From the sequence record OR424387.1: a stretch of 39,891 nt of DNA; one strand, given 5' to 3'. The DNA is from Escherichia phage HEMP4. Of this stretch, positions 12,592-32,804 are shown piece after piece. Made by a program: the position numbers and the translations under genes. How positions within the stretch are numbered: the first letter of the stretch is position 1; every line of letters starts with the position of its first letter. The notes under the pieces were generated by a model. The model saw only the letters and a program-made list of their open reading frames with translations, ran no database searches and had not been told where the DNA came from.

Positions 12592-12922
12592 ATCAGCAGC
12601 AGAGCGCAAAGCCGCTCAGAGAGCCAGACAAGCTGCATCTGGTGTGCGTAAGCTGGAGATTGTGCTTGATGCTCAGGAAATTGAAATGCTTGAGCGTAAC
12701 TGTGCCGCACGTCGCCCCGGGCGTGCGCCTTACGAATTTGGTGAGTATATAGCGTTACTGATCCGCCAGGATGATGCACGCGTGCGCGGGCGTATAAAAT
12801 CGATCAGTAGAAAACGTTGCGGTAAGTGCGGCGAGAGAGTTCCCGTTAATTCATGCCCGTGTAATGGTGACTCGCAATGCTGGGTGACTAAAGGCTGGTA
12901 TGAAACGAAATTAATAGTGTGA
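12584..12922 (+). CDS. Putative DNA-binding regulator with C-terminal Cys-rich zinc-ribbon-like tail
   Basis: 112 aa; basic N-terminus ERKAAQRARQAASGVRKLEIVLD (ribbon-helix-helix-like) and CGKCGERVPVNSCPCNGDSQC; last gene before packaging operon; stop codon lies inside GTGACATGTCAC palindrome. Confidence 0.5.
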   Translation: MAKSAAERKAAQRARQAASGVRKLEIVLDAQEIEMLERNCAARRPGRAPYEFGEYIALLIRQDDARVRGRIKSISRKRCGKCGERVPVNSCPCNGDSQCWVTKGWYETKLIV

Positions 12923-12930
12923 CATGTCAC
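12919..12930. promoter_or_regulatory. Palindrome GTGACATGTCAC, copy 1
   Basis: Perfect 12-bp palindrome overlapping TGA stop of 12584..12922; also at 15184 and 32792. Confidence 0.5.
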
Positions 12931-12971
12931 GAGTAGATTATGCATGATGAATTTGACGGGTTTTGAATACT

Positions 12972-12997
12972 GCCGCCAACTATGGCGGCTTTATTTT
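12972..12997 (+). terminator. Rho-independent terminator
   Basis: GCCGCC-aactat-GGCGGC followed by TTTATTTT. Confidence 0.65.
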
Positions 12998-13008
12998 GCA
13001 TGGTACTA

Positions 13009-13041
13009 TTACCACAACGGTAACTATTACCACGGTGGTTA
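13009..13041. promoter_or_regulatory. Two operator-like sites upstream of terS (13009..13023 perfect; 13027..13041 9/10)
   Basis: ttaccacaacggtaa and ttaccacggtggtta. Confidence 0.5.
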
Positions 13042-13637
13042 TGATGCCTGCTGAACCTAAAACCTATAAACGCAAATCAACGCAATTTAAGCCACTAACA
13101 GCAATGCAGGAGGCTTATTGCCAGTCATACATCAAAACGCCTGAAAACCAGACTCAGGCAGCGATTAACGCAGGATTCTCCCCAAATACAGCGGCAGTTA
13201 AAGCCAGTGTCATGATGCGCGATGAACGCATTCAGAAACGGATTGCCGAGTTGATGGAGGAGCGCAACAAACGAATGCGCGTCAGTGCTGATTACGTTCT
13301 CATGCGCCTGGTGGAGATCGACCAGATGGACGTTATCGACATCCTCAACGACGATGGGAGCCTTAAACCAATCCGTGAGTGGCCGAAAATCTGGCGCACT
13401 ACGCTTAGTGGCTTTGATCTGTCATCGACCATCATGAACATGAACGAGGATTCGATAGAGACAATCCTCAAAAAAATTAAATGGCCTGACAAGGTGAAGA
13501 ACCTTGAGCTGATTGGTAAGCATGTTGATGTCAATGCGTTCAAAGAACGTCTGGATGTTAATGTGAATGTGACAATTGCTGATCGCATAGCGGCAGCCAG
13601 GAAGAGACTGAAAGAACGTCAGGATGGCAATCAGTGA
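13041..13637 (+). CDS. terS: Terminase small subunit
   Basis: ORF 12963..13637 trimmed to ATG 13041; TPENQTQAAINAGFSPNTAAVKASVMM matches Terminase_2-type small subunit signature; directly upstream of terL. Confidence 0.8.
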   Translation: MMPAEPKTYKRKSTQFKPLTAMQEAYCQSYIKTPENQTQAAINAGFSPNTAAVKASVMMRDERIQKRIAELMEERNKRMRVSADYVLMRLVEIDQMDVIDILNDDGSLKPIREWPKIWRTTLSGFDLSSTIMNMNEDSIETILKKIKWPDKVKNLELIGKHVDVNAFKERLDVNVNVTIADRIAAARKRLKERQDGNQ

Positions 13638-15109
13638 CAGATACAGCGTTATCTCCTGAAGAGCAGTTAATTGAGGATATTGCAGGGTTCACTCACGATC
13701 CGCTTGGCTATGCCCTCTATGCGTTCCCGTGGGGGGAAGAGGGGACTGAACTGGCACATGCTACCGGCCCACGTCAGTGGCAGGCCGATGCGTTCCGAGA
13801 GATACGTGATCACCTGCAGAATCCAGAGACGCGTTATCAGCCGCTTATGCTGGCACGTGCTTCTGGTCACGGTATTGGTAAATCCGCATTCATCTCAATG
13901 CTCATCAACTGGGGCATGTCCACTTGCGAGGATTGTAAGGTCGTGGTGACCGCCAACACCGACAACCAGCTACGAACGAAGACCTGGCCGGAAATTATCA
14001 AGTGGTCGAACCTTGCTATCACGAAAGACTGGTTTACCTGTACCGCTACCGCGATGTACAGCAATGACCCTGGGCACGACAAGCGGTGGCGGGCTGACGC
14101 AATACCCTGGTCTGAGCACAACACTGAGGCATTCGCCGGACTACACAACGAGCGCAAACGCATCATCGTGGTGTTTGATGAAGCGTCGAACATTGCGGAT
14201 CTGGTGTGGGAAGTTGCCGAGGGTGCGCTTACGGACGAAGACACTGAGATTATTTGGGTGGCGTTCGGAAACCCTACACGTAACACCGGGCGTTTTCGCG
14301 AATGTTTCCGCAAATATAAACACCGCTGGAAAACTGCGCAGATTGACAGCCGGACGGTGGAAGGCACTAACAAACAGCAGTTGCAGAAATGGGTTGATGA
14401 CTACGGGGAAGACAGCGACTTCGTTAAAATCCGTGTGCGTGGCATATTCCCTGATGCATCTGAATTGCAGTTTATCCCTACCGGTCTTACTGACGAGGCA
14501 ATGAAACGGGTGGTAACCGCTGCGCAGGTTGCACATGCTCCGGTGATAATCGGCGTTGACCCGGCATACTCCGGCGTTGATGACGCTGTGATATACCTGC
14601 GGCAGGGGCTACACAGTAAGGTGCTGTGGACTGGCAACAAGACTACCGACGATCTGATTATGGCGAAGCGTATCGCTGACTTTGAAGACCAGTATCAGGC
14701 TGACGCGGTGTTCATCGACTTCGGTTACGGAACCGGTTTGAAGTCAATCGGTGACGGCTGGGGTCGTACATGGCAACTTGTTCCGTTCGGTGGCGCGTCT
14801 ACTGACCCGCAGATGCTCAACAAGCGTGGGGAGATGTTCAACTCATGCAAGACATGGCTGAGGCTCGGTGGCATGCTGGATGACCAGGAAACAGCGGACG
14901 ACCTGTCGGCAGCAGAGTACAAAGTTCGAGTGGACGGTAAAATCGTTATCGAACCGAAGGAAGATATCAAAGAGCGACTTGGGCGTTCTCCTGGTAAAGG
15001 CGATGCGCTACTGCTGACGTTTGCGTTCCCTGTGTCGAAGCGTCTGCGAATTCCCGGTCAGCAGAACCAGCAAGGCAAGGCCATCACAGATTACGATCCC
15101 TATGCTTAA
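13634..15109 (+). CDS. terL: Terminase large subunit
   Basis: 491 aa; Walker A-like ASGHGIGKS, Walker B-like IIVVFDEAS, C-terminal nuclease-like region; overlaps terS stop. Confidence 0.85.
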   Translation: MTDTALSPEEQLIEDIAGFTHDPLGYALYAFPWGEEGTELAHATGPRQWQADAFREIRDHLQNPETRYQPLMLARASGHGIGKSAFISMLINWGMSTCEDCKVVVTANTDNQLRTKTWPEIIKWSNLAITKDWFTCTATAMYSNDPGHDKRWRADAIPWSEHNTEAFAGLHNERKRIIVVFDEASNIADLVWEVAEGALTDEDTEIIWVAFGNPTRNTGRFRECFRKYKHRWKTAQIDSRTVEGTNKQQLQKWVDDYGEDSDFVKIRVRGIFPDASELQFIPTGLTDEAMKRVVTAAQVAHAPVIIGVDPAYSGVDDAVIYLRQGLHSKVLWTGNKTTDDLIMAKRIADFEDQYQADAVFIDFGYGTGLKSIGDGWGRTWQLVPFGGASTDPQMLNKRGEMFNSCKTWLRLGGMLDDQETADDLSAAEYKVRVDGKIVIEPKEDIKERLGRSPGKGDALLLTFAFPVSKRLRIPGQQNQQGKAITDYDPYA

Positions 15110-15159
15110 TCCGCTGGTGGGGATAATGTCGTTGATATCCTCTGGTGAGGATAAAACAA

Positions 15160-15184
15160 AGCCAGCTCATAGGCTGGCTGTTTG
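15160..15184. terminator. Bidirectional hairpin terminator between convergent terL and moron gene
   Basis: AGCCAGC-tcatag-GCTGGCT; T-rich tail on minus-strand side (TTGTTTTAT), weaker on plus. Confidence 0.55.
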
Positions 15185-15195
15185 TGACATGTCAC
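15184..15195. promoter_or_regulatory. Palindrome GTGACATGTCAC, copy 2 (within 14-bp palindrome TGTGACATGTCACA)
   Basis: Perfect palindrome adjacent to terminator. Confidence 0.5.
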
Positions 15196-15199
15196 AGAG

Positions 15200-15622
15200 C
15201 TAGAAAATAATTTCATCAAATGCAGCATTTATTGCCTTTGCTTCGCTAATGGCGCCTTGTTTATCGACAATAGCTTTTTTACCAAGCACCTCGGCAAGGC
15301 ACTGTAGCTTCATGTTGTATAAGTGTTCGCTCATGTAATCATTATCACTTTTTGCTTTAGCGCAAACAGAGCGAGAAATATCAAACACATCGCCTTTTTC
15401 CATTTCAGAACGTTGTGCTGTTATCCAGTCATGGAACGTAACGCTAGTACCATGGTCTTCGCTAAGAGTTAACCCGGTCAGTCCCTCACTCTGAATTACT
15501 TCGTAATGCATTTCATTACCAGCAAAAACGCCATAAAAAACGCAGTCTTCAGCCTGAACGATACGAGAATATTTTAATGGCCATTCATTTAGATACTTAG
15601 CCAACATATCAATTGTTTTCAT
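15200..15622 (-). CDS. Hypothetical moron protein (140 aa), AT-rich
   Basis: Opposite strand to flanking structural operon; visibly AT-rich; AAGGTGAG SD; no recognisable motifs. Confidence 0.6.
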   Translation of the reverse strand: MKTIDMLAKYLNEWPLKYSRIVQAEDCVFYGVFAGNEMHYEVIQSEGLTGLTLSEDHGTSVTFHDWITAQRSEMEKGDVFDISRSVCAKAKSDNDYMSEHLYNMKLQCLAEVLGKKAIVDKQGAISEAKAINAAFDEIIF

Positions 15623-15820
15623 GATCTCACCTTAAAAAAATGCCCAGCGAACCGGGCGAACTGGAAGCAATGAGTTATGCCTTCCGTGGCTGTACGGGTT
15701 TACAGCATGAAGTCATCGCAATGGCGTCCTGCTGTAAAAAGGGCGGTGATAGTCCTTCAAGGGAAACCATCACCGCCAAGCACCTGGAACTTCTGGCATC
15801 ACGGTCCTTAGGCGTGATTC

Positions 15821-15897
15821 TGGCGCGGCATGCAGGATTCGAACCTGCGACCAACCGCTTAGAAGGCGGTTGCTCTGTCCAACTGAGCTAATGCCAC
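15821..15897 (-). tRNA. tRNA-Arg (anticodon UCU)
   Basis: Reverse complement folds as cloverleaf: acceptor GTGGCAT/ATGCCGC (one G-U), D-arm GCTC-AGTTGGACA-GAGC, anticodon stem ACCGC/GCGGT with loop CTTCTAA (anticodon TCT), T-arm GCAGG-TTCGAAT-CCTGC, discriminator G, CCA end; 77 nt. Confidence 0.85.
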
Positions 15898-16219
15898 AAC
15901 GCTGAGAGCACTTAGCCTGTTAAGGCGCCACACTTTGTCGCGGCTCCATAAATGCTCTCATCGTTGTACCCTCGTCTCTTCCGAGGTGTCACACCGAATC
16001 GCCGGGATGGTGAATCCCCGTGCGCGGAATAAAACCGCTCGACTTGCACATTCCGGCTACCTGGTTCGTTTGCCCGAGCAAGGGAGGGTGCCCCTTAAAC
16101 GTATCCAGACCGCTATCGGCGCATGTGCCATACGCCGTACTGCTCAAAATAAAAGCTCACCCCACCTGTTCAATTTAACGACAAGCCAGTCAGATTAGTA
16201 ACTGGAGTGAATTCTTTGG

Positions 16220-16234
16220 TTACCTGAAAGGTAA
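16220..16234. promoter_or_regulatory. Operator-like palindrome TTACC-N5-GGTAA upstream of portal operon
   Basis: ttacctgaaaggtaa, perfect, followed by TAATAAT. Confidence 0.5.
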
Positions 16235-16324
16235 TAATTCGTGCGTTAAATGTCAACTGTCTACGATAAATAAATCATATGTGGTTAAATTGGTAATAAT
16301 TTAATTGCGTACGGAGTCATTGAT

Positions 16325-16531
16325 ATGTGCATGGGTAGCTCACCATCAGTGCCTGCAACACCAGAAGTTCAGGCAGCACCACAGGAGCAGGATGCCGCCG
16401 TTGTTGATGCCCGCGACGAAGAAACTCGTCGCCGTCGCGCTGCTGCTGGTCGTAGTTCTACGCTGCTTACCGGTTCTCAGGGCGACACATCAACCGCTAA
16501 TACCAGCGGTAAAACGCTGCTTGGTCAGTAA
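16325..16531 (+). CDS. Hypothetical small protein (68 aa) upstream of portal
   Basis: GGAG SD 10 nt upstream; codon usage consistent with neighbours; alternative overlapping frame 16305..16544 judged less likely. Confidence 0.45.
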   Translation: MCMGSSPSVPATPEVQAAPQEQDAAVVDARDEETRRRRAAAGRSSTLLTGSQGDTSTANTSGKTLLGQ

Positions 16532-16545
16532 CCGGAGTCATTGAA

Positions 16546-18225
16546 ATGGCGGAAACAACTAAAGAGCGATTGAACAAACAGTTCGCACAACTTGAAAGCG
16601 AGCGTCAGTCGTTCGAGCCGCACTGGCGCGAGTTGAGTGATTACATCAACCCGCGTGGTTCCCGCTTTCTGACTTCTGAGGTCAACCGTAACGATCGGCG
16701 CAATACACGCATTATTGATTCGACCGGGACTATGGCGGCGCGCACTCTCGCCAGCGGCATGATGTCAGGCATCACAAGCCCCGCGCGTCCGTGGTTTCGC
16801 CTGGCTACGCCAGATCCTGAAATGATGGATTATGGCCCTGTTAAGTTGTGGCTTGAGGCAGTTCAGAACCGCATGAACGATATGTTCAATAAGTCGAATC
16901 TCTACCAGTCTCTTCCGCAGTTATACGGAAGCCTCGGCACATACAGCACTGGTGCAATGGCAGTGCTGGAGGATGACGAGGACATCATTCGCACAATGCC
17001 ATTCCCGATAGGCAGTTACTACCTGGCTAACTCACCTCGTGGCAGTGTTGACACCTGTTTTCGCAAGTTCTCTATGACTGTTCGTCAGCTTGTTCAGGAG
17101 TTCGGGCTAAATAACGTCAGCGAATCCGTAAAAAGCATGTGGGAAAGCGGCACCTACGAGAAGTGGATCGAAGTGATGCATTCGGTTTACCCGAACATTG
17201 ACCGCGATACATCGAAGCTGGATAGCAAGAACAAGCCATTCAAATCGGTTTATTACGAGGTTGGTGGAGATAACGACAAGTTGTTGCGTGAGTCCGGATT
17301 CGATGAGTTTCCAATTATGGCTCCGCGCTGGGAAGTTAACGGCGAAGATGTTTATGGATCATCATGCCCGGGTATGCTGGCGCTTGGACCTGTTAAGGCA
17401 TTGCAGCTTCTCCAGAAGCGCAAGTCGCAGTTGATTGATAAAGCCACCAATCCGCCGATGGTTGCTCCGACTTCCCTCAAGAATCAGCGCGCCTCCCTTC
17501 TTCCTGGCGACATCACGTATATCGATCAGATTACTGGTCAGGATGGCTTCAGGCCTGCTTATCTGGTTAACCCCAGTACAGCAGATTTGGTGGCAGACAT
17601 TCAGGACACTCGTCAAATCATTAACAGCGCCTACTTTGTCGATCTGTTCATGATGTTGCAGAACATCAATACCCGCTCGATGCCTGTTGAAGCGGTGATC
17701 GAAATGAAAGAAGAAAAACTTCTGATGTTGGGGCCGGTTCTGGAGCGTCTGAACGACGAATGTCTTAATCCTCTCATTGACCGCGCTTTCTCGATGATGG
17801 TGCGCAAAAACATGCTGCCGCCACCGCCTGACGCGATGGAAGGCATGCCCCTGAAGGTCGAATACATTTCCGTCATGGCTCAGGCGCAGAAGTCTATCGG
17901 CCTGTCCAGTCTGGCGTCCACGGTTAACTTCATTGGTCAACTTGCGCAAGCGAAACCAGAAGCTCTCGACAAACTCAACGTTGATCAGGCGATCGATGCA
18001 TTCGCTGATATGTCCGGAGTGTCTCCAACCGTCATTGTTCCGCAGGAACAGGTTGAGCAGGCTCGCCAGCAACGGGCACAGCAACAACAGCAGCAACAAA
18101 TGATGGCGATGGGGATGGCGGCGGCACAGGGGGCCAAGACGCTAAGCGAAGCTAAAACTTCGGATCCGAGTGTGTTGTCAGCTATGGCGAATGCAGTTAG
18201 TGGTCAGGGTGGGCAATCACAATGA
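16546..18225 (+). CDS. Portal (head-to-tail connector) protein, podovirus type
   Basis: 559 aa; position after terminase; Gln-rich C-terminus; resembles T7 gp8-class connector proteins. Confidence 0.75.
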   Translation: MAETTKERLNKQFAQLESERQSFEPHWRELSDYINPRGSRFLTSEVNRNDRRNTRIIDSTGTMAARTLASGMMSGITSPARPWFRLATPDPEMMDYGPVKLWLEAVQNRMNDMFNKSNLYQSLPQLYGSLGTYSTGAMAVLEDDEDIIRTMPFPIGSYYLANSPRGSVDTCFRKFSMTVRQLVQEFGLNNVSESVKSMWESGTYEKWIEVMHSVYPNIDRDTSKLDSKNKPFKSVYYEVGGDNDKLLRESGFDEFPIMAPRWEVNGEDVYGSSCPGMLALGPVKALQLLQKRKSQLIDKATNPPMVAPTSLKNQRASLLPGDITYIDQITGQDGFRPAYLVNPSTADLVADIQDTRQIINSAYFVDLFMMLQNINTRSMPVEAVIEMKEEKLLMLGPVLERLNDECLNPLIDRAFSMMVRKNMLPPPPDAMEGMPLKVEYISVMAQAQKSIGLSSLASTVNFIGQLAQAKPEALDKLNVDQAIDAFADMSGVSPTVIVPQEQVEQARQQRAQQQQQQQMMAMGMAAAQGAKTLSEAKTSDPSVLSAMANAVSGQGGQSQ

Positions 18226-18518
18226 CAGATTACGAAGACGATCAACTGAAAGAAGAAAACGCCCGTAAGCAACGTGACATGGCGCAGCGTGAAATTGATG
18301 ACATTCGCTTTGTCATGAGCAGTGAACAGGGGCGTCGCGTTGTCTGGTCGGTGCTGGAGAAAGGCCGTGTGTTTTCCGCTATCTCACCGATGGACGCTAT
18401 GGCAATGGCATTTAATGAGGGGCAACGCAATCTGGCGCTGGAACTGTTTCAGCGCGTTATGGCGCATTGCCCTGAACAGTATTTGAAGATGGCCAAAGAG
18501 GCCAGTGAACAGGAGTGA
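18222..18518 (+). CDS. Hypothetical protein (98 aa)
   Basis: ORF overlapping portal stop, between portal and scaffold. Confidence 0.5.
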   Translation: MTDYEDDQLKEENARKQRDMAQREIDDIRFVMSSEQGRRVVWSVLEKGRVFSAISPMDAMAMAFNEGQRNLALELFQRVMAHCPEQYLKMAKEASEQE

Positions 18519-18520
18519 TC

Positions 18521-19216
18521 ATGAATTTATTTGAGCGTTTGCTGTATCGCCGTCTTTGCAATGAGCAACCAGTCGATGGTGGAGCAGCTCCGGCTGCGTC
18601 AGAACCGTCAGCGCCTGCAGGTGATAACCATGCTCCAGTTGGTGATCCATCACAACCGGAAGGTGATAAGTCACAACCTGTTGCTGATGGCGATAAACCT
18701 GCTGATGACAAAAATCCTGAAAACGATAAGCAGGATGAAAAAAAGGACGGCGATAAACCAGAGGGTGCGCCTGAGAAGTACGAGTTTCAGGCTGCCGAAG
18801 GCGTAGAGCTGGATACAGAAGCGTTGAAGGAATTCGAGCCGGTGGCGCGAGAACTAAACCTGACCAACGAGCAAGCGCAAAAGCTGGTTGATGCTTATCC
18901 GAAGATTCTGGCAGGTGTTCAGCAGCGCCAGGTAGAAGCCTGGCAGAAAACAACCGAGCAGTGGGCTGCGGATGTAAAAGCTGACAAAGAAATCGGTGGC
19001 GACAAGTTGATTTCTAACCTTAGCGCCGCACAGCGTGCGCTTGACCAGTTCGGGACACCTGAACTCAAAGAATATCTGAACACCACCGGGCTGGGTAATC
19101 ACCCTGATCTGGTCAAAACGTTCGTGAAAATCGGAAAGGCGATGTCTGAAGATGGCATGGTCACCGGTGGTAATGAAGGCCAGCGTAGTGCGGCCGAAGT
19201 GCTCTATGGCAAATAA
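18521..19216 (+). CDS. Capsid scaffolding protein
   Basis: Acidic Pro/Asp/Lys-rich low-complexity N-terminal half, helical C-terminal half; immediately upstream of major capsid gene; AGGAG SD. Confidence 0.65.
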   Translation: MNLFERLLYRRLCNEQPVDGGAAPAASEPSAPAGDNHAPVGDPSQPEGDKSQPVADGDKPADDKNPENDKQDEKKDGDKPEGAPEKYEFQAAEGVELDTEALKEFEPVARELNLTNEQAQKLVDAYPKILAGVQQRQVEAWQKTTEQWAADVKADKEIGGDKLISNLSAAQRALDQFGTPELKEYLNTTGLGNHPDLVKTFVKIGKAMSEDGMVTGGNEGQRSAAEVLYGK

Positions 19217-19230
19217 GAGAGGAAATGACA

Positions 19231-20217
19231 ATGGCTGTTAAAGGCTTAACTGCGCTAACGCTGGCTGACTGGGGTAAGCGCGTCGATCCAAACGGGAAAG
19301 TCGATAAGATTATCGAGCTTCTCGGTCAAACTAACCCGATCCTTCAGGATATGCCTTTTGTCGAAGGGAACCTTCCTACCGGACACCGAACCACCATTCG
19401 TTCTGGTTTACCTTCAGCTACCTGGCGTTTGCTGAACTATGGCGTACAGCCAAGCAAATCAACCACAGTGCAGGTAACCGATTCCGTTGGCATGCTGGAA
19501 ACCTATGCGGAAGTCGATAAGTCACTGGCTGATCTGAACGGCAATACCGCCGAATTCCGCCTGTCTGAAGACCGCGCATTTATTGAAGCGATGAATCAGC
19601 AGATGGCGCAGACGCTGTTTTATGGTGATTCCAGCGTTAACCCTCAGCAGTTTATGGGACTGTCCTCCCGCTATTCCAGCCTGTCTGCGGGTAATGCTCA
19701 GAATATCATTGATGCTGGTGGCACGGGTACAGATAACACCTCAATCTGGTTAGTGGTGTGGGGCGAAAACACCGTGCATGGCATCTTCCCGAAAGGGCAG
19801 AAGGCTGGCATCCAGATGGAAGATAAAGGCCAGGTGACACTGGAAGATGCTAATGGCGGCAAGTACGAAGGCTATCGCACCCATTACAAATGGGATAACG
19901 GACTTGCTCTGCGTGACTGGCGTTATGTTGTTCGCATTGCAAACATCGATGTCAGCAATCTTTCAGAACCATCCTCTGCCGCAAATATTGCGAAGTTGAT
20001 GGTTAAAGCACTACATCGCATTCCAAACCGTGGCATGGGCCGCCCGGTGTTCTACATGAACCGCACTGTAGGCCAGGCTCTTGATCTGCAGTCTCTGGAG
20101 AAAACATCTCTGGCTATCAGCGTAAAAGAGACAGAAGGCGAGTGGTGGACTTCATTCCGTGGTGTACCAATCCGTGAAACTGATGCGCTTCTGGAAACAG
20201 AAGCCCGCGTGGTGTAA
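19231..20217 (+). CDS. Major capsid protein
   Basis: About 330 aa, strong SD, position after scaffold, followed by stem-loop; ORF track start 19225. Confidence 0.75.
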   Translation: MAVKGLTALTLADWGKRVDPNGKVDKIIELLGQTNPILQDMPFVEGNLPTGHRTTIRSGLPSATWRLLNYGVQPSKSTTVQVTDSVGMLETYAEVDKSLADLNGNTAEFRLSEDRAFIEAMNQQMAQTLFYGDSSVNPQQFMGLSSRYSSLSAGNAQNIIDAGGTGTDNTSIWLVVWGENTVHGIFPKGQKAGIQMEDKGQVTLEDANGGKYEGYRTHYKWDNGLALRDWRYVVRIANIDVSNLSEPSSAANIAKLMVKALHRIPNRGMGRPVFYMNRTVGQALDLQSLEKTSLAISVKETEGEWWTSFRGVPIRETDALLETEARVV

Positions 20218-20268
20218 CGCCTGTTATTAACCTGTGGGTCGTAACAGACCCACTAATGGAGAAAGAAG

Positions 20269-20706
20269 ATGATCACCGACAAACTGTTGATGTTCTCCGA
20301 AGCTCAGGCGGTTACGAATACCGCGGCTTCTACTGACGTAATCGATCTCGGTCCAATTGACGGAAAACGTCGTGATATCGGCGTGGGTTACCCGCTTGAG
20401 TTTTGGGTGCTGGTTAACGCAGCCGCCGCAGCAAGCGGTGATGCAACTGTAAACATCCAGTTGCAGACGAGTGAGAATAACACCTCATGGACCACTATTT
20501 ATGATAGTGGCGCACTGGTAAAGACCGCCCTGACAGCAGGTAAACGAGTTGTTTCTGCAAAGGTGCCTGCCGGTGTTCAGCGATATCTGCGTGTTAACTA
20601 CTCCGTCGCAACTGGCCCACTAACGGCTGGCGAATTCACTGCTGGTATCAGTCTTGATGTTGATGCCAATACGCCGTATCCGATCCGCTCAAAAGTAACT
20701 GGTTAA
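20269..20706 (+). CDS. Hypothetical virion protein (145 aa)
   Basis: ORF in structural operon with GGAGAAAG SD. Confidence 0.5.
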   Translation: MITDKLLMFSEAQAVTNTAASTDVIDLGPIDGKRRDIGVGYPLEFWVLVNAAAAASGDATVNIQLQTSENNTSWTTIYDSGALVKTALTAGKRVVSAKVPAGVQRYLRVNYSVATGPLTAGEFTAGISLDVDANTPYPIRSKVTG

Positions 20707-20716
20707 GGTGATATCG

Positions 20717-21052: not shown

Positions 21053-21068
21053 GCCTCGCGAATCAGAC

Positions 21069-24966: not shown

Positions 24967-25511
24967 TGTGCGATCCGGTTATTGCTGGTGGCGCAATGCT
25001 CGCCATGAGTGGCATTCAGGCATACACCCAGTACCAACAGGGAAAGTATGCCTCGAAGGTTGCAGAAGCGAACGCAGATATAGCCACAGCTCAGGCAAAT
25101 GATGCAATAAACAGAGGTAACGCTGAAGCTGAGCAACGACGCAGAGAGACCCGACAGCGGCTTGGTACACAGGCGGCGACAATGGGGGCTACCGGCGCTG
25201 ATTTATCTACAGGTAACGCGCTGGATATATTTGGCGACACTGCCCAGTTTGGCGCTCTTGATTCGCTGACGACGGTGAATAACGCGCAACGCGAGGCTTA
25301 CGGTTATCAGGTTCAGGCTGCCAACTATAAAGCAGAAGCCAGTTCAGCCCGTAAACAGGGGAATGTGGGAGCAGCAACAACATTGCTCACTGCGCCTCTG
25401 AAGGCATACGGTGCCTACCAGATGTTTGGTGGGACGTGGAGTCCGTTTACTCAAAGTACTCCTGCACCAATCGGGGCAGCAGCAGGAACCAGATTACCCG
25501 GAGGATTATAA
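24966..25511 (+). CDS. Putative internal virion protein (181 aa)
   Basis: Ala/Gln-rich, N-terminal hydrophobic segment; position upstream of large internal proteins. Confidence 0.45.
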   Translation: MCDPVIAGGAMLAMSGIQAYTQYQQGKYASKVAEANADIATAQANDAINRGNAEAEQRRRETRQRLGTQAATMGATGADLSTGNALDIFGDTAQFGALDSLTTVNNAQREAYGYQVQAANYKAEASSARKQGNVGAATTLLTAPLKAYGAYQMFGGTWSPFTQSTPAPIGAAAGTRLPGGL

Positions 25512-28024
25512 TGCCAGTCGTACCAACAGTATCCGGACGTCAGGTTGAGAGCCGTGGAGTTCAGTCAGCAGGCTTGCAGACGTTTTCTCAGCCAGGTATT
25601 GGTGATGCTTTTGTTCGGGCAGGGGCAGAGGCTATTGATGTTTTTGGTCAGGCAAAACAGCGTGCCAATATCGCTCTGGCTCAGGAGGCATCTCTTAACC
25701 TCAGTCAGATAAGCAGTGATCTGCTGAATAATCCTGAAACAGGATTGCTTAACCTGAAAGGGAAAAATGCTATTGGAAAAGGCCATGAGTATACGCAGCA
25801 GTTTGATGCTCAGGTCGAACAACTGGCTATGTCGCTGCCGGATGAACAGGCTCGTAATGCTTTCATGCAGCAGGCGCAGCAGCAGCGCATTCAGTTCACT
25901 ACGCAGGCAGGGCGGCACGAGATAGGGCAAATAAATGCCTACGAAGAAGGCCAGTTTCAGGCTACGCTGCTGAACAATGGTAAAAATGCCGCAGCATTGT
26001 ATGGCGACAACGCCGCATACGTATTGGCTAATAAGCAAACTTTCCAGCAAATTGAGGATTACGGCATTGCACATGGCTGGAGTGACGAGCAAATCCAGGC
26101 CAAGAAAATCGAGTTTAAAGAAGCAACAGCAAAAGCAACTGCTCAAAATGCTATTGGAGCAAACTATCTTCAGGTAAGACAGCAAAACGGCGAGTTAAGC
26201 GATACTGCTGCTGGATCTCGCCGTGCTGTAGCAGATAGTGGCTCTTTCGATCGTACCCGCGGTATACGCAACAATAACCCCGGCAATCTTGAATACAGCA
26301 AAACTAATCCGTGGGTTGGGCAGACAGGTGATGATGGTCGCTTTGCTAAATTCGAAACACCTGAACACGGTATTCGTGCATTAGGGCGGAACCTGATGTC
26401 GTATCAGCGGCAGGGTATTGATACCGTCAGCGAGATAATTAATCGCTGGGCACCGCCCACTGATAAAAATGACACAATGTCGTATATCAAAGCAGTGTGC
26501 GAACAACTTGGCGTTTCTGCTGATGAGTCTCTCGATGCATCTAATCCGGATACCCTGAAGGCGCTTTGTGCAGCCATTATCCATCATGAAAACGGTAGCC
26601 AGCCATACAGTGATCAGCAGTTAACTGATGGTGTTAGTGCTGCGCTGGGGCTTTCTCAGCTACCGACAAAAAATAAACGTTATACCGGTGTAGCTTGGTT
26701 CGATGCTTTAAGTGAATCAGATCAGGCCAGCGTGTTGCGACAGACTGATGCACTAGCCAGACAACAGCAGGCTGAATATAAAACGATGCTCGACAGCCGG
26801 GTTCGCGATGCGACGGCTGCGTATATGCGTGGCGTTGAATTTCCTAACCCACCTGGTGAGGATGATTTTATTGCAGCTTATGGAGTCAGAGAAGGAAACC
26901 TGCGATATACCGAGTTTAAGAATACGCAGATCGCCGGACAGTATATAGGCTCTTTCCGCAACATGCCGACAAGCAGCATTACAGCATATGTTGAGCAATT
27001 ACGCCCGGATACTGGTGATACAGGGGAGGGGTATGCGGCACGCGCAGCTCTTTATGACAACGTTGTTTCGGCTGCAAATCAGGTGATAAAGCAGCGGCAG
27101 TCGGATCCTGTGCAGTTCTCTCTTGCCTCCGGACAGGCAAAGCCTATCGACATGAGCAATAAGGATAACTTTGGACAGAGCGTTGCCTTGCGTGCCGCTC
27201 AGGTCAGTGACCTTGCTAAGTCATATGGCACTCCACTGACGTTCTTTTCCAAAGACGAGGCCAATCAGATCGGTGTTTTCTTTCGTGATGCTCCAGTTTC
27301 CCAACAGGCAGCATATCTCGATACCATCAGGCAGAGCACTGGTGGTGGGCAGGTGTATATGTCAGCACTACAGCAGATCAGTGCCAACGCTCCATCTGCT
27401 GCCGTTGCCGGGATACTGATGGATAAGCCTGGTGGTATTTTGGCAGAAAAAAACTGGTTTAATCCGGATGTTTCCGTGTCTCCTGAAACCGCTGCGCAGA
27501 CAATTCTTGCTGGCGCGGCGGCTCGTAAAGGTACTGATGATGCGAAAGGTATTCCGATGCCTAAAGATGCTGATCTTCGCCTTGAGTTTTCTGACATGGT
27601 GAAGGATGCATTTGCTGGTGACGCTCAGGGGGCATCAATGGCATACGAGATCGCAAAGGATTATTACGCTGGTGTGATGGCGAAAAAAGGCGTGGTATCA
27701 GGCGAAATTGACAATGATGTCTGGAAACAGGCTGTTAACGTAGCTACAGGTGGCGTGCATGACTATAACGGAATGGGGAATGTCCTTTTGCCGTGGGGAA
27801 TGTCTGCAGAGCAATTCGATAAGCAGGTTAATCAGGCTTGGAATGAACAAGTTGTCGGCTCTGGGATAAAAACACCGCCTGGTCAGTATGGTTTGCAAAG
27901 TTACGGCGATAGTCAGTACCTGGTGAAACTTGGTACTGGTTATCTGCTGAAAGATGATGGTTCTCCCGTTGTTCTTAATCTGACACAGAAGCGTCAGAGA
28001 TTCTCCGGAGATATTCCGCAATGA
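25511..28024 (+). CDS. Large internal virion / ejection protein (837 aa)
   Basis: ATG after GGAGGA SD (ORF track 25436..28024 trimmed); position and size analogous to podovirus core proteins. Confidence 0.5.
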   Translation: MPVVPTVSGRQVESRGVQSAGLQTFSQPGIGDAFVRAGAEAIDVFGQAKQRANIALAQEASLNLSQISSDLLNNPETGLLNLKGKNAIGKGHEYTQQFDAQVEQLAMSLPDEQARNAFMQQAQQQRIQFTTQAGRHEIGQINAYEEGQFQATLLNNGKNAAALYGDNAAYVLANKQTFQQIEDYGIAHGWSDEQIQAKKIEFKEATAKATAQNAIGANYLQVRQQNGELSDTAAGSRRAVADSGSFDRTRGIRNNNPGNLEYSKTNPWVGQTGDDGRFAKFETPEHGIRALGRNLMSYQRQGIDTVSEIINRWAPPTDKNDTMSYIKAVCEQLGVSADESLDASNPDTLKALCAAIIHHENGSQPYSDQQLTDGVSAALGLSQLPTKNKRYTGVAWFDALSESDQASVLRQTDALARQQQAEYKTMLDSRVRDATAAYMRGVEFPNPPGEDDFIAAYGVREGNLRYTEFKNTQIAGQYIGSFRNMPTSSITAYVEQLRPDTGDTGEGYAARAALYDNVVSAANQVIKQRQSDPVQFSLASGQAKPIDMSNKDNFGQSVALRAAQVSDLAKSYGTPLTFFSKDEANQIGVFFRDAPVSQQAAYLDTIRQSTGGGQVYMSALQQISANAPSAAVAGILMDKPGGILAEKNWFNPDVSVSPETAAQTILAGAAARKGTDDAKGIPMPKDADLRLEFSDMVKDAFAGDAQGASMAYEIAKDYYAGVMAKKGVVSGEIDNDVWKQAVNVATGGVHDYNGMGNVLLPWGMSAEQFDKQVNQAWNEQVVGSGIKTPPGQYGLQSYGDSQYLVKLGTGYLLKDDGSPVVLNLTQKRQRFSGDIPQ

Positions 28025-29823
28025 GTTACTTTGGCCTTAATCCAGTAAACCAGAATCAGCAGCTTGACGAAGCAGCATCAAATCCAGCTGGCTTTAACAG
28101 CGATGTTGGTTTTTTCGACAATGCTGTAGGAGCGGCATTGTCTGGTTTGTACTCCGGGCTGGTGGCAAAGCCAGATCAGTTGCTATGGGCAGGGATGGAT
28201 AAAATCGTATCCCCGATTGCTCAGTTTGTTAACGAAAACACCTCGCTCAATGATACTTCAGTTTCATACATTGCCGAGCAGAGAAAACTAGCAGAGCAGC
28301 AGGTTAAGCGGCTGACGCCTGATGCCGCGACAACCGGAACCGCTGGGCAGGTTCTTTATGGGTTGTTCGATATGGGCGGGCAGGCTGTTGTCGGTACAAC
28401 GCTCGGTGGTCCTGTCGGAGGTGCAGCGGCGGTAACTTCGCTACAGGGTTTTTCTGAGTTTGAACGGCTGACAGCACAGGGTGTTGATTTCAGGACGGCG
28501 CAGGAAGCGGGATTAGTGCAGGGCATTACTGCTGGTGCCGGAACGCTGATCCCTATGAGCCTCGGGTTACGTGCTGGTGGTGCGCTGGCGGAAGGTGTGG
28601 CGGCTCAGCTTGCGCGGACGGGTGAGAGTTCAGTGCGACGCGCCGCAGCAACAGCAGTACGTGCAACGCCAGATATTGCCTATGCCGCAGGTACAAATAT
28701 TGCGTTCGGTATGGCACAGCGTGGGCTTACTGCAAAAACACTTCGTGATGGTGGCTATAGCGAAATGGCTAACCAGTATGATGTGTTGGATCGACAGGCA
28801 ATTGCTATTGATGCTGTTCTTGGGGTGGCGTTTGGTGGTGTCGGCAGATTTATTAACTCTCGCGGCGAGTCTACAAACGCACCAAATTTTTCACCAGTTG
28901 ATATCGATGCTGCACTGGCGGCGAATGCCGCTCATCATGCTGAAATTGATATTGCGCCCGGCGTGCCGATCAACGTGCTTTCGCGCAATTCTCACATTCA
29001 GGCTCTGCGAAAAGCTATGTCTGATGTTAGCCAGGGGAGACCTGTAGACGTTGCCAGCATTGTTGAGTCTGCATCTTTCAGTGAAATTCCTGGGCGCAAG
29101 AGTCTGCTGTCTCAGGCAGTTAATGAGGCTCTGTCATCTGTAGATGATGGAGTAACGGCGCGCGCTATAGAAAATCGGTTGCTTGAAGAACAGGCCGCGC
29201 AGCTTTTGCCGCGTGGAGATAGACAGGTTTACCAGTCTGAAATCGCTAATAGCCAACGAATTATTGAAAATCTCACTGAACAGCGTGCACAAATTCTTGC
29301 AGAAGAGCCAACCGGTAGCGGTAAAGCTTTGTCTCGTGCTCGATCAGATAAACAGGCCAGACTTCGCGATATTGATCAACGAATCCGGCAGGCACAAGAA
29401 CGCCTGGAATTTTCCCGTAACGCGTTGGCACCGCACGAGCCTGGCGGTCAGTTTTTTGAAGCTCGAGCAGAACTGGCTCGGAGACAGCAGGCAGAAAGTG
29501 AACTTAATGCTCAGGCTGTTTCATTCTATAAAACAGCAGAGGTCAGGACGCCAGACGAAGTAGCTCCTTTTGAGCCTGATAAAATATTGCAACAGGCAGA
29601 ACAAAAAATGATGTCAGATCAGGCAGGAGATATTGATCTGCGCATAGCTGAAGACTCGCTGCTTGAATCACCTGACATGATAATCACCGTGCTGGATGAT
29701 GATGGTAATCCACAATCGCGCAGTGCGCGTGAAGTACTGGATGAAGCGAACAGGGAAAGTGAGCAGGCAATACAGGATTCCAGCCTGTTTGATGTTGCTG
29801 TGGCGTGTTTCTTGAGAGGTTAA
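28021..29823 (+). CDS. Large internal virion / ejection protein (600 aa)
   Basis: Overlapping start/stop with neighbours; Ala/Gly-rich. Confidence 0.5.
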   Translation: MSYFGLNPVNQNQQLDEAASNPAGFNSDVGFFDNAVGAALSGLYSGLVAKPDQLLWAGMDKIVSPIAQFVNENTSLNDTSVSYIAEQRKLAEQQVKRLTPDAATTGTAGQVLYGLFDMGGQAVVGTTLGGPVGGAAAVTSLQGFSEFERLTAQGVDFRTAQEAGLVQGITAGAGTLIPMSLGLRAGGALAEGVAAQLARTGESSVRRAAATAVRATPDIAYAAGTNIAFGMAQRGLTAKTLRDGGYSEMANQYDVLDRQAIAIDAVLGVAFGGVGRFINSRGESTNAPNFSPVDIDAALAANAAHHAEIDIAPGVPINVLSRNSHIQALRKAMSDVSQGRPVDVASIVESASFSEIPGRKSLLSQAVNEALSSVDDGVTARAIENRLLEEQAAQLLPRGDRQVYQSEIANSQRIIENLTEQRAQILAEEPTGSGKALSRARSDKQARLRDIDQRIRQAQERLEFSRNALAPHEPGGQFFEARAELARRQQAESELNAQAVSFYKTAEVRTPDEVAPFEPDKILQQAEQKMMSDQAGDIDLRIAEDSLLESPDMIITVLDDDGNPQSRSAREVLDEANRESEQAIQDSSLFDVAVACFLRG

Positions 29824-29828
29824 ATTAA

Positions 29829-32303
29829 ATGAGACAGGAATGTATACAAGCGGTCCAGCAGGCGGCGCAGCGCACGTTAACGGCGCGAGAAATACAGAAC
29901 ATTGAAGACCGCATTTATCGAAATATGCGCTCCATTGCTCGTGATGACCCGATGTCGTGGCGACAACTTTCCGAATCAGAACGGTTGTATCGTGCAGCAC
30001 AATTGGCATCTGAAGAATTACAGCGAGAAGCGGCATTAAAGAAACGTCGTGTGGCCCTCACTATAGCCGCACGTCAGAGATTGGATAAATTTATCAATAG
30101 CTATCAAGGGGCTGATGGGAAACTTGGCGCTCTTAACCGTACTATTGCTTTTAATGCAGACGGTAAATCGAATTTCCTCTCTGTTGAATCCAGAACAAAA
30201 GCCACCCGTGATTATGCATTGAGTCAATTGCAGGAGGCATTCGAAGCAGTTGATCCTCGCTTTTTTGGTCTGTTTGAAGATGAAGCGGGCGTACGTGACC
30301 TGATATATGAAATGCGGGGGCAAAATACTGGCAATGCTAAAGCAAGAAAAGGTGCTAAGGCGTGGAGAGAAGTTACAGAGCTGCTGCGCCGCCGGTTTAA
30401 TGATGCTGGTGGGGACATTGGCTATCTCGAAAACTGGGGGATCCCTCAACATCATTCTATGGAAAAGGTTGGGGCGGTATCAAAAGATAAATGGGTTAGC
30501 GATGTTATAGGTAAGCTGGATCGCAAATATTATACCCGAGCCGATGGACAACTGATGAACGATGCCGAGTTGTCTGCATTTCTTGGAGAGGCTTATAACA
30601 CGATCGCTACTGGTGGGCTGAATAAGCTTACTGATACCGGAATGCGAATTTCCGGCGCACGTGCTAACCGTGGTAATGCATCACGACAGATACATTTCAA
30701 AGATGCAGATTCCTATCTGCAATATCAGCAACTTTATGGCGATCGCTCTCTATGGGAAATCATGGTCGGTCACCTGGAAGGTATCAGTAAAGATATTGCA
30801 CTGGTGGAAACATATGGTCCAAACCCCGATCATGTTTTCCGCTCTCTTCTTGATCAGGTGAAGGCAGAAACGGCAACAGCTAACCCGAGTAAAACCGGTA
30901 AAGTCGAGCGGCTGGCGAACAACACAGAGAATCTGTACAACTTTATTTCCGGAAAGACACAGCCTGTAGCGAATCCGCACATCGCGCGATGGTCTGACAA
31001 TATCCGCAACTGGCTGGTTGCCAGCAGACTCGGATCCGCGTTGCTGTCATCGTTCTCTGATCTTGGAACCATGTATCTGTCTGCGAAGGTTACCAACCTT
31101 CCAATGAACCAGTTATTCCGCAACCAGCTTGAAGCTATGGACCCAACGAACCGTACAGAACTTGCGCGGGCGCGCCGCGCTGGTCTGGCGATGGAATCTC
31201 TACTTGGCAGCGTTAACCGCTGGGCGATGGATAATATGGGGCCGTCTGTGTCTCGTTGGGCTGCAACGGCGGTAATGCGTGCCAGTGGGCTTACAGCATG
31301 GTCAGATGCGCACAAGCGCGCCTATGGCGTAACCATGATGGGAAGCCTGGGAGAAGTAGTGTCACGGACACCAGACCTTCGTCGCCTCGATGACTCTGAT
31401 TTTCGTATCCTGAAAAGCAAAGGGATTACTGACACAGACTGGAGCGTATGGAAGTTGGCGCAACAGGAGGACTGGGGGAACGGTAATAATACGATGCTGA
31501 CACCGGAAAGCATTATGCGTATCCCTGATTCAGCAGTTAAACATCTTGGTGAGCCTGAACGCGTGAAATTTGAGGCAATGCGTAAACTGCTCGGTGCCGT
31601 AACTGAAGAAGTTGATATGGCTGTTATTACACCGGGAGCACGTGAGCAACTGATAACCGGTTCTGGTATTCAGCGTGGAACATGGAAAGGTGAATTAACG
31701 AGAAGTGTTTTCCTGTTTAAATCGTTCCCTATCTCGGTTGTTATGCGTCACTGGTCACGCGCTATGGGTATGCCGTCTGCTGGTGGGCGTGCGGCATATA
31801 TTGCGACGTTTATTGCCAGTACGACCATTCTTGGCGCTTTGTCGCAACAACTTAACGACCTTGCGTCTGGTCGTAATCCTCGAGAGATGACAGGAGAAGA
31901 TGCTGCTAAATTTTGGCTTGGTGCTCTACTGAAAGGTGGTGGTCTTGGCCTTTACGGTGACTTTTTATTGTCAGATCACACTAGGTACGGGAGCGGCGCG
32001 CTGGCGTCGATGCTTGGCCCGGTAGCTGGTCTGGTTGATGACGTAGTGAAGATAGCTCAGGGCATACCGCTAAATGCTGTGGAAGGGAAGAGTGAGCAGA
32101 CTGGTGGTGATCTGGTGAAGCTGGGGAAAGGTTTGATGCCAGGTGCGAATCTCTGGTACTTGAAGGCGGCTCTCGATCACATGATCTTTAATCAGATGCA
32201 GGAGTATTTTTCACCAGGCTATTTGCGTAAAATGGAGCAACGTTCGAAGAAAGAGTTTAACCAGACATACTGGTGGCGACCTCAGGATGTCACTCCGCAA
32301 TAA
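29829..32303 (+). CDS. Large internal virion / ejection protein (824 aa)
   Basis: Large ORF completing structural operon. Confidence 0.5.
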   Translation: MRQECIQAVQQAAQRTLTAREIQNIEDRIYRNMRSIARDDPMSWRQLSESERLYRAAQLASEELQREAALKKRRVALTIAARQRLDKFINSYQGADGKLGALNRTIAFNADGKSNFLSVESRTKATRDYALSQLQEAFEAVDPRFFGLFEDEAGVRDLIYEMRGQNTGNAKARKGAKAWREVTELLRRRFNDAGGDIGYLENWGIPQHHSMEKVGAVSKDKWVSDVIGKLDRKYYTRADGQLMNDAELSAFLGEAYNTIATGGLNKLTDTGMRISGARANRGNASRQIHFKDADSYLQYQQLYGDRSLWEIMVGHLEGISKDIALVETYGPNPDHVFRSLLDQVKAETATANPSKTGKVERLANNTENLYNFISGKTQPVANPHIARWSDNIRNWLVASRLGSALLSSFSDLGTMYLSAKVTNLPMNQLFRNQLEAMDPTNRTELARARRAGLAMESLLGSVNRWAMDNMGPSVSRWAATAVMRASGLTAWSDAHKRAYGVTMMGSLGEVVSRTPDLRRLDDSDFRILKSKGITDTDWSVWKLAQQEDWGNGNNTMLTPESIMRIPDSAVKHLGEPERVKFEAMRKLLGAVTEEVDMAVITPGAREQLITGSGIQRGTWKGELTRSVFLFKSFPISVVMRHWSRAMGMPSAGGRAAYIATFIASTTILGALSQQLNDLASGRNPREMTGEDAAKFWLGALLKGGGLGLYGDFLLSDHTRYGSGALASMLGPVAGLVDDVVKIAQGIPLNAVEGKSEQTGGDLVKLGKGLMPGANLWYLKAALDHMIFNQMQEYFSPGYLRKMEQRSKKEFNQTYWWRPQDVTPQ

Positions 32304-32312
32304 GGAAGTGTT

Positions 32313-32486
32313 GTGTTTTTAATTATTTTGAGTGTGATAATTTCTGGTGGATTGTTATTTATTGACCGCTACAAATATTTTCTTAACCCTCAGACTCAAG
32401 CTATTTGCTGGTTCATCTTTGTTGTGCAGGGAGTAGTTCTTGTTGCAAGCCTTATTGAGGGGAGGCCTCTTATTTTTACTGGGTAA
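32313..32486 (+). CDS. Small hydrophobic protein (57 aa), putative membrane protein
   Basis: Hand-translated from GTG 32313 (AAGGA SD 6 nt upstream): MFLIILSVIISGGLLFIDRYKYFLNPQTQAICWFIFVVQGVVLVASLIEGRPLIFTG; below ORF-track cutoff. Confidence 0.3.
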   Translation: MFLIILSVIISGGLLFIDRYKYFLNPQTQAICWFIFVVQGVVLVASLIEGRPLIFTG

Positions 32487-32498
32487 ATAGGTGACTAC

Positions 32499-32795
32499 AT
32501 GCAAGCTATAGGATTCATTGTTTATATCGTCGTTGGTCTTTTTCAGTTGGCAGCAATTATGGCTGGGCTTGAATCATGGTGGGGATTGCACTGGATAATT
32601 GCAGCCCCCATTGCTTTCATCGTGAGCTATATTCCATTTGTTGGAGCGATTGTTGGTATGGTTGGCGCTGTGGATGTATGGCGGTGGGAGTGGTGGCAGG
32701 CTGGCCTTCTCTTCTTTGGTGGGATCATCTTTGCTATTGTCTGCGGTGGAATGTCATCATTTTTCGAATGGCTATCATTCAGAAAAGGGACGTGA
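32499..32795 (+). CDS. Small integral membrane protein (98 aa, about 3 TM segments)
   Basis: Highly hydrophobic; AGGTGA SD; stop codon inside GTGACATGTCAC palindrome, then terminator. Confidence 0.5.
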   Translation: MQAIGFIVYIVVGLFQLAAIMAGLESWWGLHWIIAAPIAFIVSYIPFVGAIVGMVGAVDVWRWEWWQAGLLFFGGIIFAIVCGGMSSFFEWLSFRKGT

Positions 32796-32803
32796 CATGT
32801 CAC
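32792..32803. promoter_or_regulatory. Palindrome GTGACATGTCAC, copy 3
   Basis: Perfect 12-bp palindrome overlapping TGA stop, directly followed by terminator. Confidence 0.5.
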
Positions 32804-32804
32804 A

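Follow-up and report, generated by a model that had tools for sequence, protein, structure and literature searches.

We describe a 12-base-pair (bp) perfect palindrome, GTGACATGTCAC, in the genome of Escherichia phage HEMP4 (sequence record OR424387.1) and suggest that it is a DNA operator read by one of the phage's own proteins. The window, by which we mean the whole 39,891-nucleotide (nt) stretch analysed, is a complete epsilon15/phiV10-like phage of the genus Uetakevirus and contains three exact copies of this dyad. The candidate binder is the 112-amino-acid product of the gene at 12584..12922 (+ strand), a member of the phiV10 gp55/epsilon15 gp49 family (PHROG 536), for which a ribbon-helix-helix (RHH) DNA-binding fold joined to a zinc ribbon is predicted. 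We put at about one in two the probability that the dyad is the operator of this protein at the 3' boundaries of transcription units, and that the complex acts on transcription with either polarity. The sequences and the predicted fold together suggest that a dimer of the protein binds the dyad sites, and such binding would decide what an elongating RNA polymerase does at a unit boundary.

The three copies lie at 12919-12930, 15184-15195 and 32792-32803, and an exact search found no fourth. Base composition predicts 0.0023 copies (the probability of three or more being about 2e-9), which agrees with the preliminary description of this DNA, made from its letters alone, where three perfect copies had been reported against a chance of about 0.002. 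Copy 1 (12919..12930) holds the TGA stop (12920-12922) of the RHH/zinc-ribbon gene, and copy 3 (32792..32803) holds the TGA stop (32793-32795) of the last gene of the structural operon; the overlap of two copies with an upstream stop codon, also reported there, is therefore real, as is the statement that every copy adjoins a terminator, since a hairpin with a T tract is found at each. Copy 2 (15184..15195) has the terL terminator on one side and, on the other, a variable cargo gene of the minus strand (15200..15622, 140 amino acids, PHROG 4846), whose 3' end carries it; the layout on the - strand is stop, 4 nt, dyad, 4 nt, hairpin. Read along the gene being terminated, the order at all three sites is stop codon, palindrome, terminator, with gaps from dyad to hairpin of 41 nt at copy 1, 4 nt at copy 2 and 0 nt at copy 3.

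The first terminator, t1 (12972..12997, + strand; hairpin 12972-12989 and T tract), separates the RHH gene from terS and is kept across the genus. The second, t2 (15152..15179, - strand; hairpin 15179-15160 and T tract), scores as a terminator on the - strand only and so ends the minus-strand tRNA/cargo unit, and the third, t3 (32804..32829, + strand; hairpin 32804-32821 and T tract), closes the structural operon, its hairpin abutting copy 3. The 41-nt gap at copy 1 holds the remnant of a 66-codon open reading frame (ORF) that is intact in 25 close relatives: its 3' end (...DEFDGF and stop) survives at 12946-12966, and the intact ORF lies between dyad copy 1 and the terminator (for example L007, 10358-10558). 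In the Salmonella relative VB_ST_E15, t1 is tandemly duplicated (L004, 39870-39907 and the wrap). The gene that ends in copy 3 (32499..32795, + strand) encodes a variable, small hydrophobic protein of 98 amino acids (PHROG 3075), probably a membrane protein, and is swapped for a 46-amino-acid gene in phiV10. Two near-copies of the dyad with 2 mismatches each were seen inside structural genes, at 18274-18285 and 18663-18674; the former reads GTGACATGGCAC (1 mismatch) in phiV10 and TL-2011b and may be either a decayed fourth site or a chance match.

The palindrome is retained where its surroundings are not. VB_ST_E15, SPN1S and Enterobacter phage Tyrion carry the identical 12-mer at the same three syntenic places, whereas the flanks, the terminator sequences and the neighbouring genes around these copies differ. 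Two exact copies and one copy with 1 mismatch are found in each of phiV10 and phiv142-3, and two exact copies in TL-2011b. The position of copy 1 is occupied in phiV10, TL-2011b, E15, SPN1S and Tyrion, copy 3 is kept in relatives that have a different upstream gene, and prophage copies show occasional single-base variants. The motif search in related genomes that had been proposed as a check thus returns a conserved, non-random palindrome, with the three syntenic sites shared by six relatives (from E. coli, Salmonella and Enterobacter) despite diverged flanks. We also fetched loci encoding homologues of the 112-amino-acid protein from clades at 30-60% identity, which by source names include Pantoea, Citrobacter, Yersinia, Salinivibrio and the Pseudomonas fluorescens group. 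As judged by comparison of these loci, GTGACATGTCAC is the local form of a family-wide motif, (Y)GTGAC-NN-GTCAC(R), of 12 bp, or 14 bp with its flanks, which prolong the dyad symmetry (Y...R). The half-sites GTGAC/GTCAC are invariant across the homologue clades, and the central dinucleotide varies (AT, CT, GT, TT, GC, AC, TG or CG), being AT in enterics, CT/GT/TT/AC in the Pantoea clade, GC in Yersinia P2-like phages and TG/CG in Pseudomonas-type loci. In all, 406 matches to the motif occur in 4.73 Mb of homologue loci, compared with 4.5 expected. Invariant half-sites around a variable centre are what one would expect if double-stranded DNA were read by a symmetric dimer.

The gene and the motif are found together. 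GTGAC-NN-GTCAC lies on the stop codon of the homologue, or at most 12 nt after it, in 254 of 283 loci, and somewhere in the locus in 273 of them, which upholds the earlier proposal that the palindrome is tied to the gene for the zinc-ribbon protein. The pairing holds down to about 30% protein identity, in Pantoea, Yersinia, Klebsiella, Salinivibrio/Vibrio and Pseudomonas phages, loci of the Pseudomonas fluorescens group being among the latter, and at the level of sequence this shows gene and motif to be co-inherited across very different temperate phages. Held-out annotated phages served as a separate test of the link. Klebsiella KpLi5 (37% identity to the window protein) has GTGACTGGTCAC on the stop codon, Yersinia vB_YenM_56.17 (44%) has one copy, also on the stop codon, and Vibrio K303 (31%) has two copies of GTGACACGTCAC near the gene; the homologue in Aeromonas 14AhydR10PP (31%) has no motif within 7 kb. 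The single 48.5-kb genome of lambda, whose homologue status was not tested, has no copy. A homologue is also encoded in 28 of 120 random IMG/VR stretches that contain CGTGACATGTCACG; many of the matches in the other stretches are intragenic (in genes for Q-like zinc-finger or NinG-like proteins), or fall in GTGAC-rich iteron arrays in unrelated phages. Since only 28 of the 120 stretches hold the gene, and many other matches are intragenic, the bare 12-mer is not diagnostic by itself.

The AlphaFold2 model of the 112-amino-acid protein (mean pLDDT, the predicted local distance difference test score, 88) has a strand-helix-helix core together with a basic helix at the N-terminus, a further, long helix and a ribbon rich in Cys. 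The N-terminus, MAKSAAERKAAQRARQAA, is arginine-rich. The protein falls into no Pfam or NCBIfam family, a profile search against PDB sequences gave weak zinc-finger matches only, hhalign of the family profile against E. coli MatP was not significant, and a scan of the genome contigs with P0186 gave no match. A short dyad-symmetric site and an RHH protein encoded nearby are two of the features by which the operator of an RHH regulator would be recognised, and the perfect 12-bp palindrome, with its symmetric Y...R flanks, invariant half-sites and free centre, and the predicted RHH protein agree with both.

The location of the motif is equally regular. An ORF of at least 50 codons ends inside the motif, or no more than 14 nt upstream of it, in 88% of 278 unique contexts, compared with 14% at random positions. 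The commonest geometries are a TGA inside the motif, and a stop followed by 4 nt, the motif, about 4 nt and a hairpin. Where a terminator lies within 100 nt (98 sites), the motif is 5' of it at 60 sites, terminators stand on both sides at 34, and the motif is found only 3' of one at 4. Essential late genes can follow the pair of motif and terminator directly, namely terS in the window and a candidate major-capsid ORF at L088/L117.

Taken together, a regulator's binding site, or an element controlling termination or antitermination, is still the best class of explanation, as it was in the preliminary description. Within this class, we slightly favour a read-through switch of the antitermination type, which we hold to be possible rather than probable. 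The protein would build up as the last product of the early-right operon; it would sit some 30-40 bp behind the polymerase, measured from the dyad centre, once the polymerase had reached the adjacent terminator, and it would let transcription pass t1 into terS/terL and t3 toward the tailspike and lysis genes. The position of the motif 5' of terminators, and that of the RHH gene as the last before terS, speak for such a switch, as do the essential late genes that follow several pairs of motif and terminator, and the spacing of about 30-40 bp behind the polymerase resembles that of Q at its binding element.

Several observations weigh against this picture. At the level of the operator itself, homologues without a nearby motif occur in Aeromonas 14AhydR10PP and at locus L290, and the sequence association could be with another conserved factor. 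The beta-strand residues of the RHH fold vary across the family although the half-site is fixed, and only R8 and R13 of the N-terminal helix are conserved family-wide, which makes the DNA-reading head uncertain. The Pantoea clade, among others, has no terminator after the motif, and in Vibrio-type phages one copy lies between a T-run and the ribosome-binding site of terS. As for read-through, the late-gene units appear to have promoter/operator modules of their own, and at copy 2 it would yield only antisense terL RNA, since a good terminator stands on the minus strand. In the P2-like Yersinia phage the homologue also coexists with an annotated regulator in the Ogr position, a Q-like gene accompanies it in KpLi5 (annotated) and at L126 (inferred from sequence), and we know of no RHH antiterminator.

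The preliminary description had also suggested a site for a late regulator, of which the regulator site is sustained and the activation of late promoters is not, given that no promoter follows copies 2 and 3 and that homologues of the protein coexist with Ogr-position and Q-like regulators. A late-activator site was rejected in its own right: the regions upstream of the portal/structural and tailspike units contain no copy of the dyad, and a different one, TTACC-N5-GGTAA, is found there instead. We likewise rejected the motif as a promoter: GTGACA is like a -35 hexamer and copy 2 gives a 10/12 promoter-like match, but the -10 is not conserved in relatives. A Q antiterminator with its binding element (QBE) was rejected as well, there being no Pfam hit to Q and no conserved promoter at copies 2 and 3.

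The opposite polarity is a doubtful if serious contender. In a roadblock or insulator, the bound protein would halt RNA polymerase at unit ends, in either direction; the upstream mRNA would be cut short before its stop codon, so that the product would be tagged by transfer-messenger RNA (tmRNA), and the outcome would be negative autoregulation of the protein together with late shut-off of the cargo and distal early genes. RHH proteins are mostly repressors, which suits such a role, as do the stop codon 0-14 nt from the site in 88% of contexts, the existence of an intragenic copy with no terminator nearby, and the palindromic form, which fits the convergent boundaries at copies 2 and 3. The site at the protein's own stop codon also recalls the overlap of O3 with the end of lacI, where LacI bound at O3 acts as a roadblock and gives rise to a truncated mRNA and an SsrA-tagged product (PMC3711431). 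Several sites, however, have an essential late gene of like orientation immediately downstream (terS in the window, the candidate major-capsid ORF at L088/L117, and terS in K303), and a roadblock would be redundant with a strong intrinsic terminator 0-5 nt downstream.

Copy 2 raises a further explanation, one that we consider unlikely: that the dyad is a hot spot of recombination at which cargo genes and larger modules, such as the terminase block (copies 1-2) and the structural block (copies 2-3), are swapped, either through replication forks stalled by the protein or through a site-specific activity that uses the variable central dinucleotide. The points where BLAST homology to relatives breaks off, 12932 and 15195, do fall at the edges of the motif. 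Many unrelated cargo genes of the minus strand have their junction exactly at copy 2: at least 7 distinct cargo sequences abut it among close relatives, as do about 30 cargo-end clusters across all loci. A cargo ORF at L088 and L099 has a copy on either side, whereas relatives without cargo have a single one; in L088-type phages this ORF lies between the candidate capsid ORF and a 282-amino-acid late ORF, which we take by inference to be scaffold-like. Nevertheless, the motif is not linked to any recombinase, a genome with three identical palindromes would be at risk of deletions or inversions, and breakpoints are expected anyway at a conserved island amid freely evolving intergenic DNA. Moreover, ordinary homologous recombination suffices, because many cargo proteins share a homologous C-terminus and terminator.

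The C-terminus of the 140-amino-acid cargo protein, ...LYNMKLQCL...AINAAFDEIIF, is common to other dyad-ending cargo proteins. These share the form ...LYNMKLQCL...(A/E)xINA(A/G)F(D/E)xI.. and stop, seen at window 15200-15330 (- strand), L088 15538-16110 and L006 2718-3089; their N-terminal parts are unrelated, and they look like a polymorphic family. The shared peptide in L088-type cargo hints that the motif travels with cargo. The 140-amino-acid protein itself was found in Uetakevirus relatives only, and being so confined it cannot show movement of the motif with cargo between phage types. The minus-strand island that holds this gene (15200-16263), between terL and the portal unit, also carries a tRNA-Arg(TCT) at 15821-15897 and two hairpins, with about 350 nt of non-coding, possibly structured DNA upstream of the tRNA (15900-16250).

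A role in organising or packaging DNA is less probable still. The sites would serve bridging, condensation or packaging in the manner of MatP and matS, the protein would act on DNA rather than on transcription, and the sites would be found at gene ends simply because a compact genome offers room for a 12-mer there. The half-sites match those of matS exactly, the matS consensus being the 13-bp GTGACRNYGTCAC (PMC6907758). Copies flank terS-terL in the window and in the Pantoea clade, one lies just upstream of terS in Vibrio-type phages, and tight linkage of gene and site is typical of pairs of a cis site and its factor, such as parB-parS and terS-pac. Set against this are the lack of significant sequence similarity to MatP, the single copy in P2-like phages, the copies at cargo ends and in an early gene, which do not suit a pac site, and the absence of a partition ATPase from the annotated relatives.

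We think it very unlikely that the dyad works as RNA. The transcribed GUGACNNGUCAC might form a hairpin in the 3' untranslated region for protein binding, processing or stability or, in a variant we count together with this, an antitermination signal of the nut/boxB kind read by the arginine-rich N-terminal helix. The order of stop, motif and terminator does follow transcription and parallels lambda nutR between cro and tR1, and the arginine-rich N-terminus MAKSAAERKAAQRARQAA would suit an RNA ligand. However, the 12-mer folds as RNA at only -1.2 kcal/mol, no better than shuffled sequences, and covariation in the stem is lacking among clades at 30-60% protein identity. Of 24 homologues of a 107-amino-acid early gene, at identities down to 50%, 23 retain an internal copy of the motif, which is read from the opposite strand; one Cys-to-Gly change in that gene leaves the DNA motif intact, and the copy is maintained against synonymous drift. 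The flanks are symmetric (Y...R), Rfam has no family overlapping the dyad sites, and the predicted RHH fold points to duplex DNA. The weak hairpin, the lack of covariation, the intragenic copy, the absence of an Rfam family and the RHH fold favour recognition of duplex DNA by a symmetric dimer, and the suggestion of an RNA processing site made at the outset is unlikely on account of the marginal hairpin, the invariant stem, the symmetric flanks and the copy in a translated region. A nut/boxB-type element was rejected on the -1.2 kcal/mol fold and on a stem that is invariant across the 30-60%-identity clades. The dyad is not itself an intrinsic terminator, since it folds so weakly and lacks a U tract; the terminators stand next to it as elements of their own. 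At the IMG/VR locus L155, both copies carry point changes (GTGACACTTCAC at the gene end and GTGATATGTCAC in the 107-amino-acid gene) and the homologue match spans residues 40-110 only; protein and sites may have decayed jointly.

A site for a host factor (CRP, MatP or SlmA) or a chance repeat is extremely unlikely. A partial likeness to CRP half-sites, to matS half-sites and to the 12-bp SlmA site GTGAGTACTCAC (PMC3020112) speaks for a host factor, but the motif follows the phage gene into Pseudomonas phages, and chance is excluded by 406 matches against 4.5 and by 3 copies against 0.0023. The resemblance to CRP noted at first was not borne out, because a CRP site (TGTGA-N6-TCACA) requires N6 rather than N4 spacing, the T...A flanks that give TGTGA/TCACA occur at one site of the three, 15184, and what is conserved is GTGAC/GTCAC. 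The 13-mer matS is ruled out by 0 matches to GTGAC-N3-GTCAC in the window, against 3 to GTGAC-N2-GTCAC. The SlmA site agrees in length and in its outer GTGA/TCAC and differs at positions 5-8, with an inner GTAC where the dyad has CATG, and with G5/C8 where C5/G8 are invariant in the phage family.

The window contains a second, more numerous dyad. TTACC-N5-GGTAA, allowing at most 1 mismatch, occurs at 14 sites compared with 0.63 expected (261, 6346, 6408, 7120, 7168, 7505, 9407, 9469, 13009, 13027, 16220, 33722, 34783 and 35163). It flanks the gene for a CI-like repressor in the immunity region and also precedes terS, the portal/structural unit, the tailspike and other units. Because it also occupies the immunity region, it is probably a repressor operator, and it looks like an immunity repressor operator used genome-wide, in the manner of stoperators or of P1 C1. 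A shared promoter-like module stands before three rightward units (9407-9483, 16220-16300 and 35163-35228), in the order TTACC-N5-GGTAA operator, about 40 nt, (C/T)ATATGTGGTT, and then a second GGTAA half-site or full operator, which suggests that each of these units has its own repressor-controlled promoter. Just upstream of the gene at 34829..35104 (- strand) is a near-consensus LexA box, ACTGTATAAATATACAGT (35107-35124), followed by Rfam matches to isrK (34670-34746) and C4 antisense RNA (34562-34645) and then by the ORF 33803..34528, which matches the position of the Bro-N antirepressor gene of phiV10; together they form an SOS-controlled antirepressor operon like P1 immI. LexA boxes are also found after the GTGAC dyad in relatives of the Klebsiella type and in the P2-like Yersinia phage.

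As to the genome as a whole, the first 127 nt of the record are identical to the last 127 (1-127 = 39765-39891), an exact overlap from which we take it to be a circularly assembled genome of 39,764 bp. The terminase region is 95-98% identical to that of the phiV10-like Escherichia phages phiV10, PAS61, ZX5 and TL-2011b, and about 80% identical to that of Salmonella epsilon15/SPN1S-like, Enterobacter and Klebsiella relatives, all of them Uetakevirus. The repeat GTGACGGTAT occurs six times (five distinct sites) around the start of the integrase gene (30, 252, 487, 577, 830 and 39794), and these are probably integrase arm-type or attP sites. In the early-left region, 2298-2387 (- strand) matches Rfam sRNA-Xcc1 at 62.9 bits, which exceeds the gathering score.

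If the pairing of protein and dyad were confirmed, PHROG 536 would gain a function and a DNA target; members of this family occur in 152 of 50,697 phage records and several hundred viral contigs of IMG/VR, and their annotation has so far gone no further than 'transcriptional regulator' or 'hypothetical protein'. The dyad would also become a cis signal for the ends of transcription units and the slots of cargo genes in epsilon15-like, P2-like and lambdoid phages, and thereby an aid to genome annotation and to phage engineering, for instance in the placement and insulation of payloads. The searchable literature holds no description of the 12-mer or its variants in this context. A broader claim, which we think less likely than not, is that temperate gammaproteobacterial phages share a widespread and so far unrecognised system in which an RHH/zinc-ribbon protein uses a promoter-independent, 12-bp duplex-DNA dyad at gene 3' ends to act on the elongating polymerase at the neighbouring terminator. 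If true, factor-dependent read-through or termination would have a new mechanistic class, and the geometry, with the polymerase controlled from the 3' end of a gene just before an intrinsic terminator, would be unusual for a regulator.

Among known systems, lambda Q and its QBE also combine a protein from the end of an early operon with a DNA site some 35 bp behind the polymerase and terminators that are read through; Q proteins, moreover, also bind zinc. The dyads described here lie at gene 3' ends far from promoters and number several per genome, whereas Q can load only during a sigma-dependent pause close to the promoter and needs no more than one site in each late operon. The predicted fold here is RHH, and the protein coexists with a Q-annotated gene in KpLi5 and with an inferred Q-like ORF at L126. 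Lambda N and nutR offer an element between a stop codon (cro) and the next terminator (tR1) and a factor that is arginine-rich at its N-terminus; nut, however, is an RNA hairpin with boxA, whereas the dyad hairpin is marginal and without covariation, and the fold predicts binding to duplex DNA. RfaH, too, is a read-through factor recruited to elongating polymerase by a 12-nt DNA element inside operons, ops, but ops lies in 5' leaders, and its reader, a NusG paralogue, recognises the single-stranded non-template DNA of a paused complex.

The stoperators of mycobacteriophage L5 are short conserved protein-binding sites at gene boundaries that act on elongating polymerase. Like the dyads they are scattered at gene boundaries of a temperate phage, but they lack symmetry, there are 20-30 of them per genome, and their binding protein is the immunity repressor. 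A stoperator-like repressor site was rejected for the GTGAC dyad, which with up to 2 mismatches is absent from the immunity region, where TTACC-N5-GGTAA is present instead; the 14 sites of the latter fit a stoperator role better. Repetitive extragenic palindromic (REP) elements are imperfect palindromes of 35-40 nt after stop codons, with many copies in the host, and are associated with RAYT transposases. The motif described here is not one of them, being 12 bp long, phage-borne, linked to an RHH gene rather than to a transposase, and without overlap with any Rfam or other family. LacI at O3 is like our protein in that the operator overlaps the 3' end of the regulator's own gene; its main operators, unlike all the phage copies, which lie at 3' ends by intrinsic terminators, are at the promoter.

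MatP and matS of enterobacteria likewise pair an RHH protein with inverted GTGAC/GTCAC half-sites, in coding and non-coding DNA alike. The centre of matS is 3 bp, and MatP has an extra four-helix bundle, no zinc ribbon and no detectable sequence homology to the phage protein; MatP is not known outside enterics and vibrios, and the phage motif is also found in Pseudomonas phages. If the widespread system outlined above is real, it is possibly an evolutionary cousin of MatP/matS recognition.

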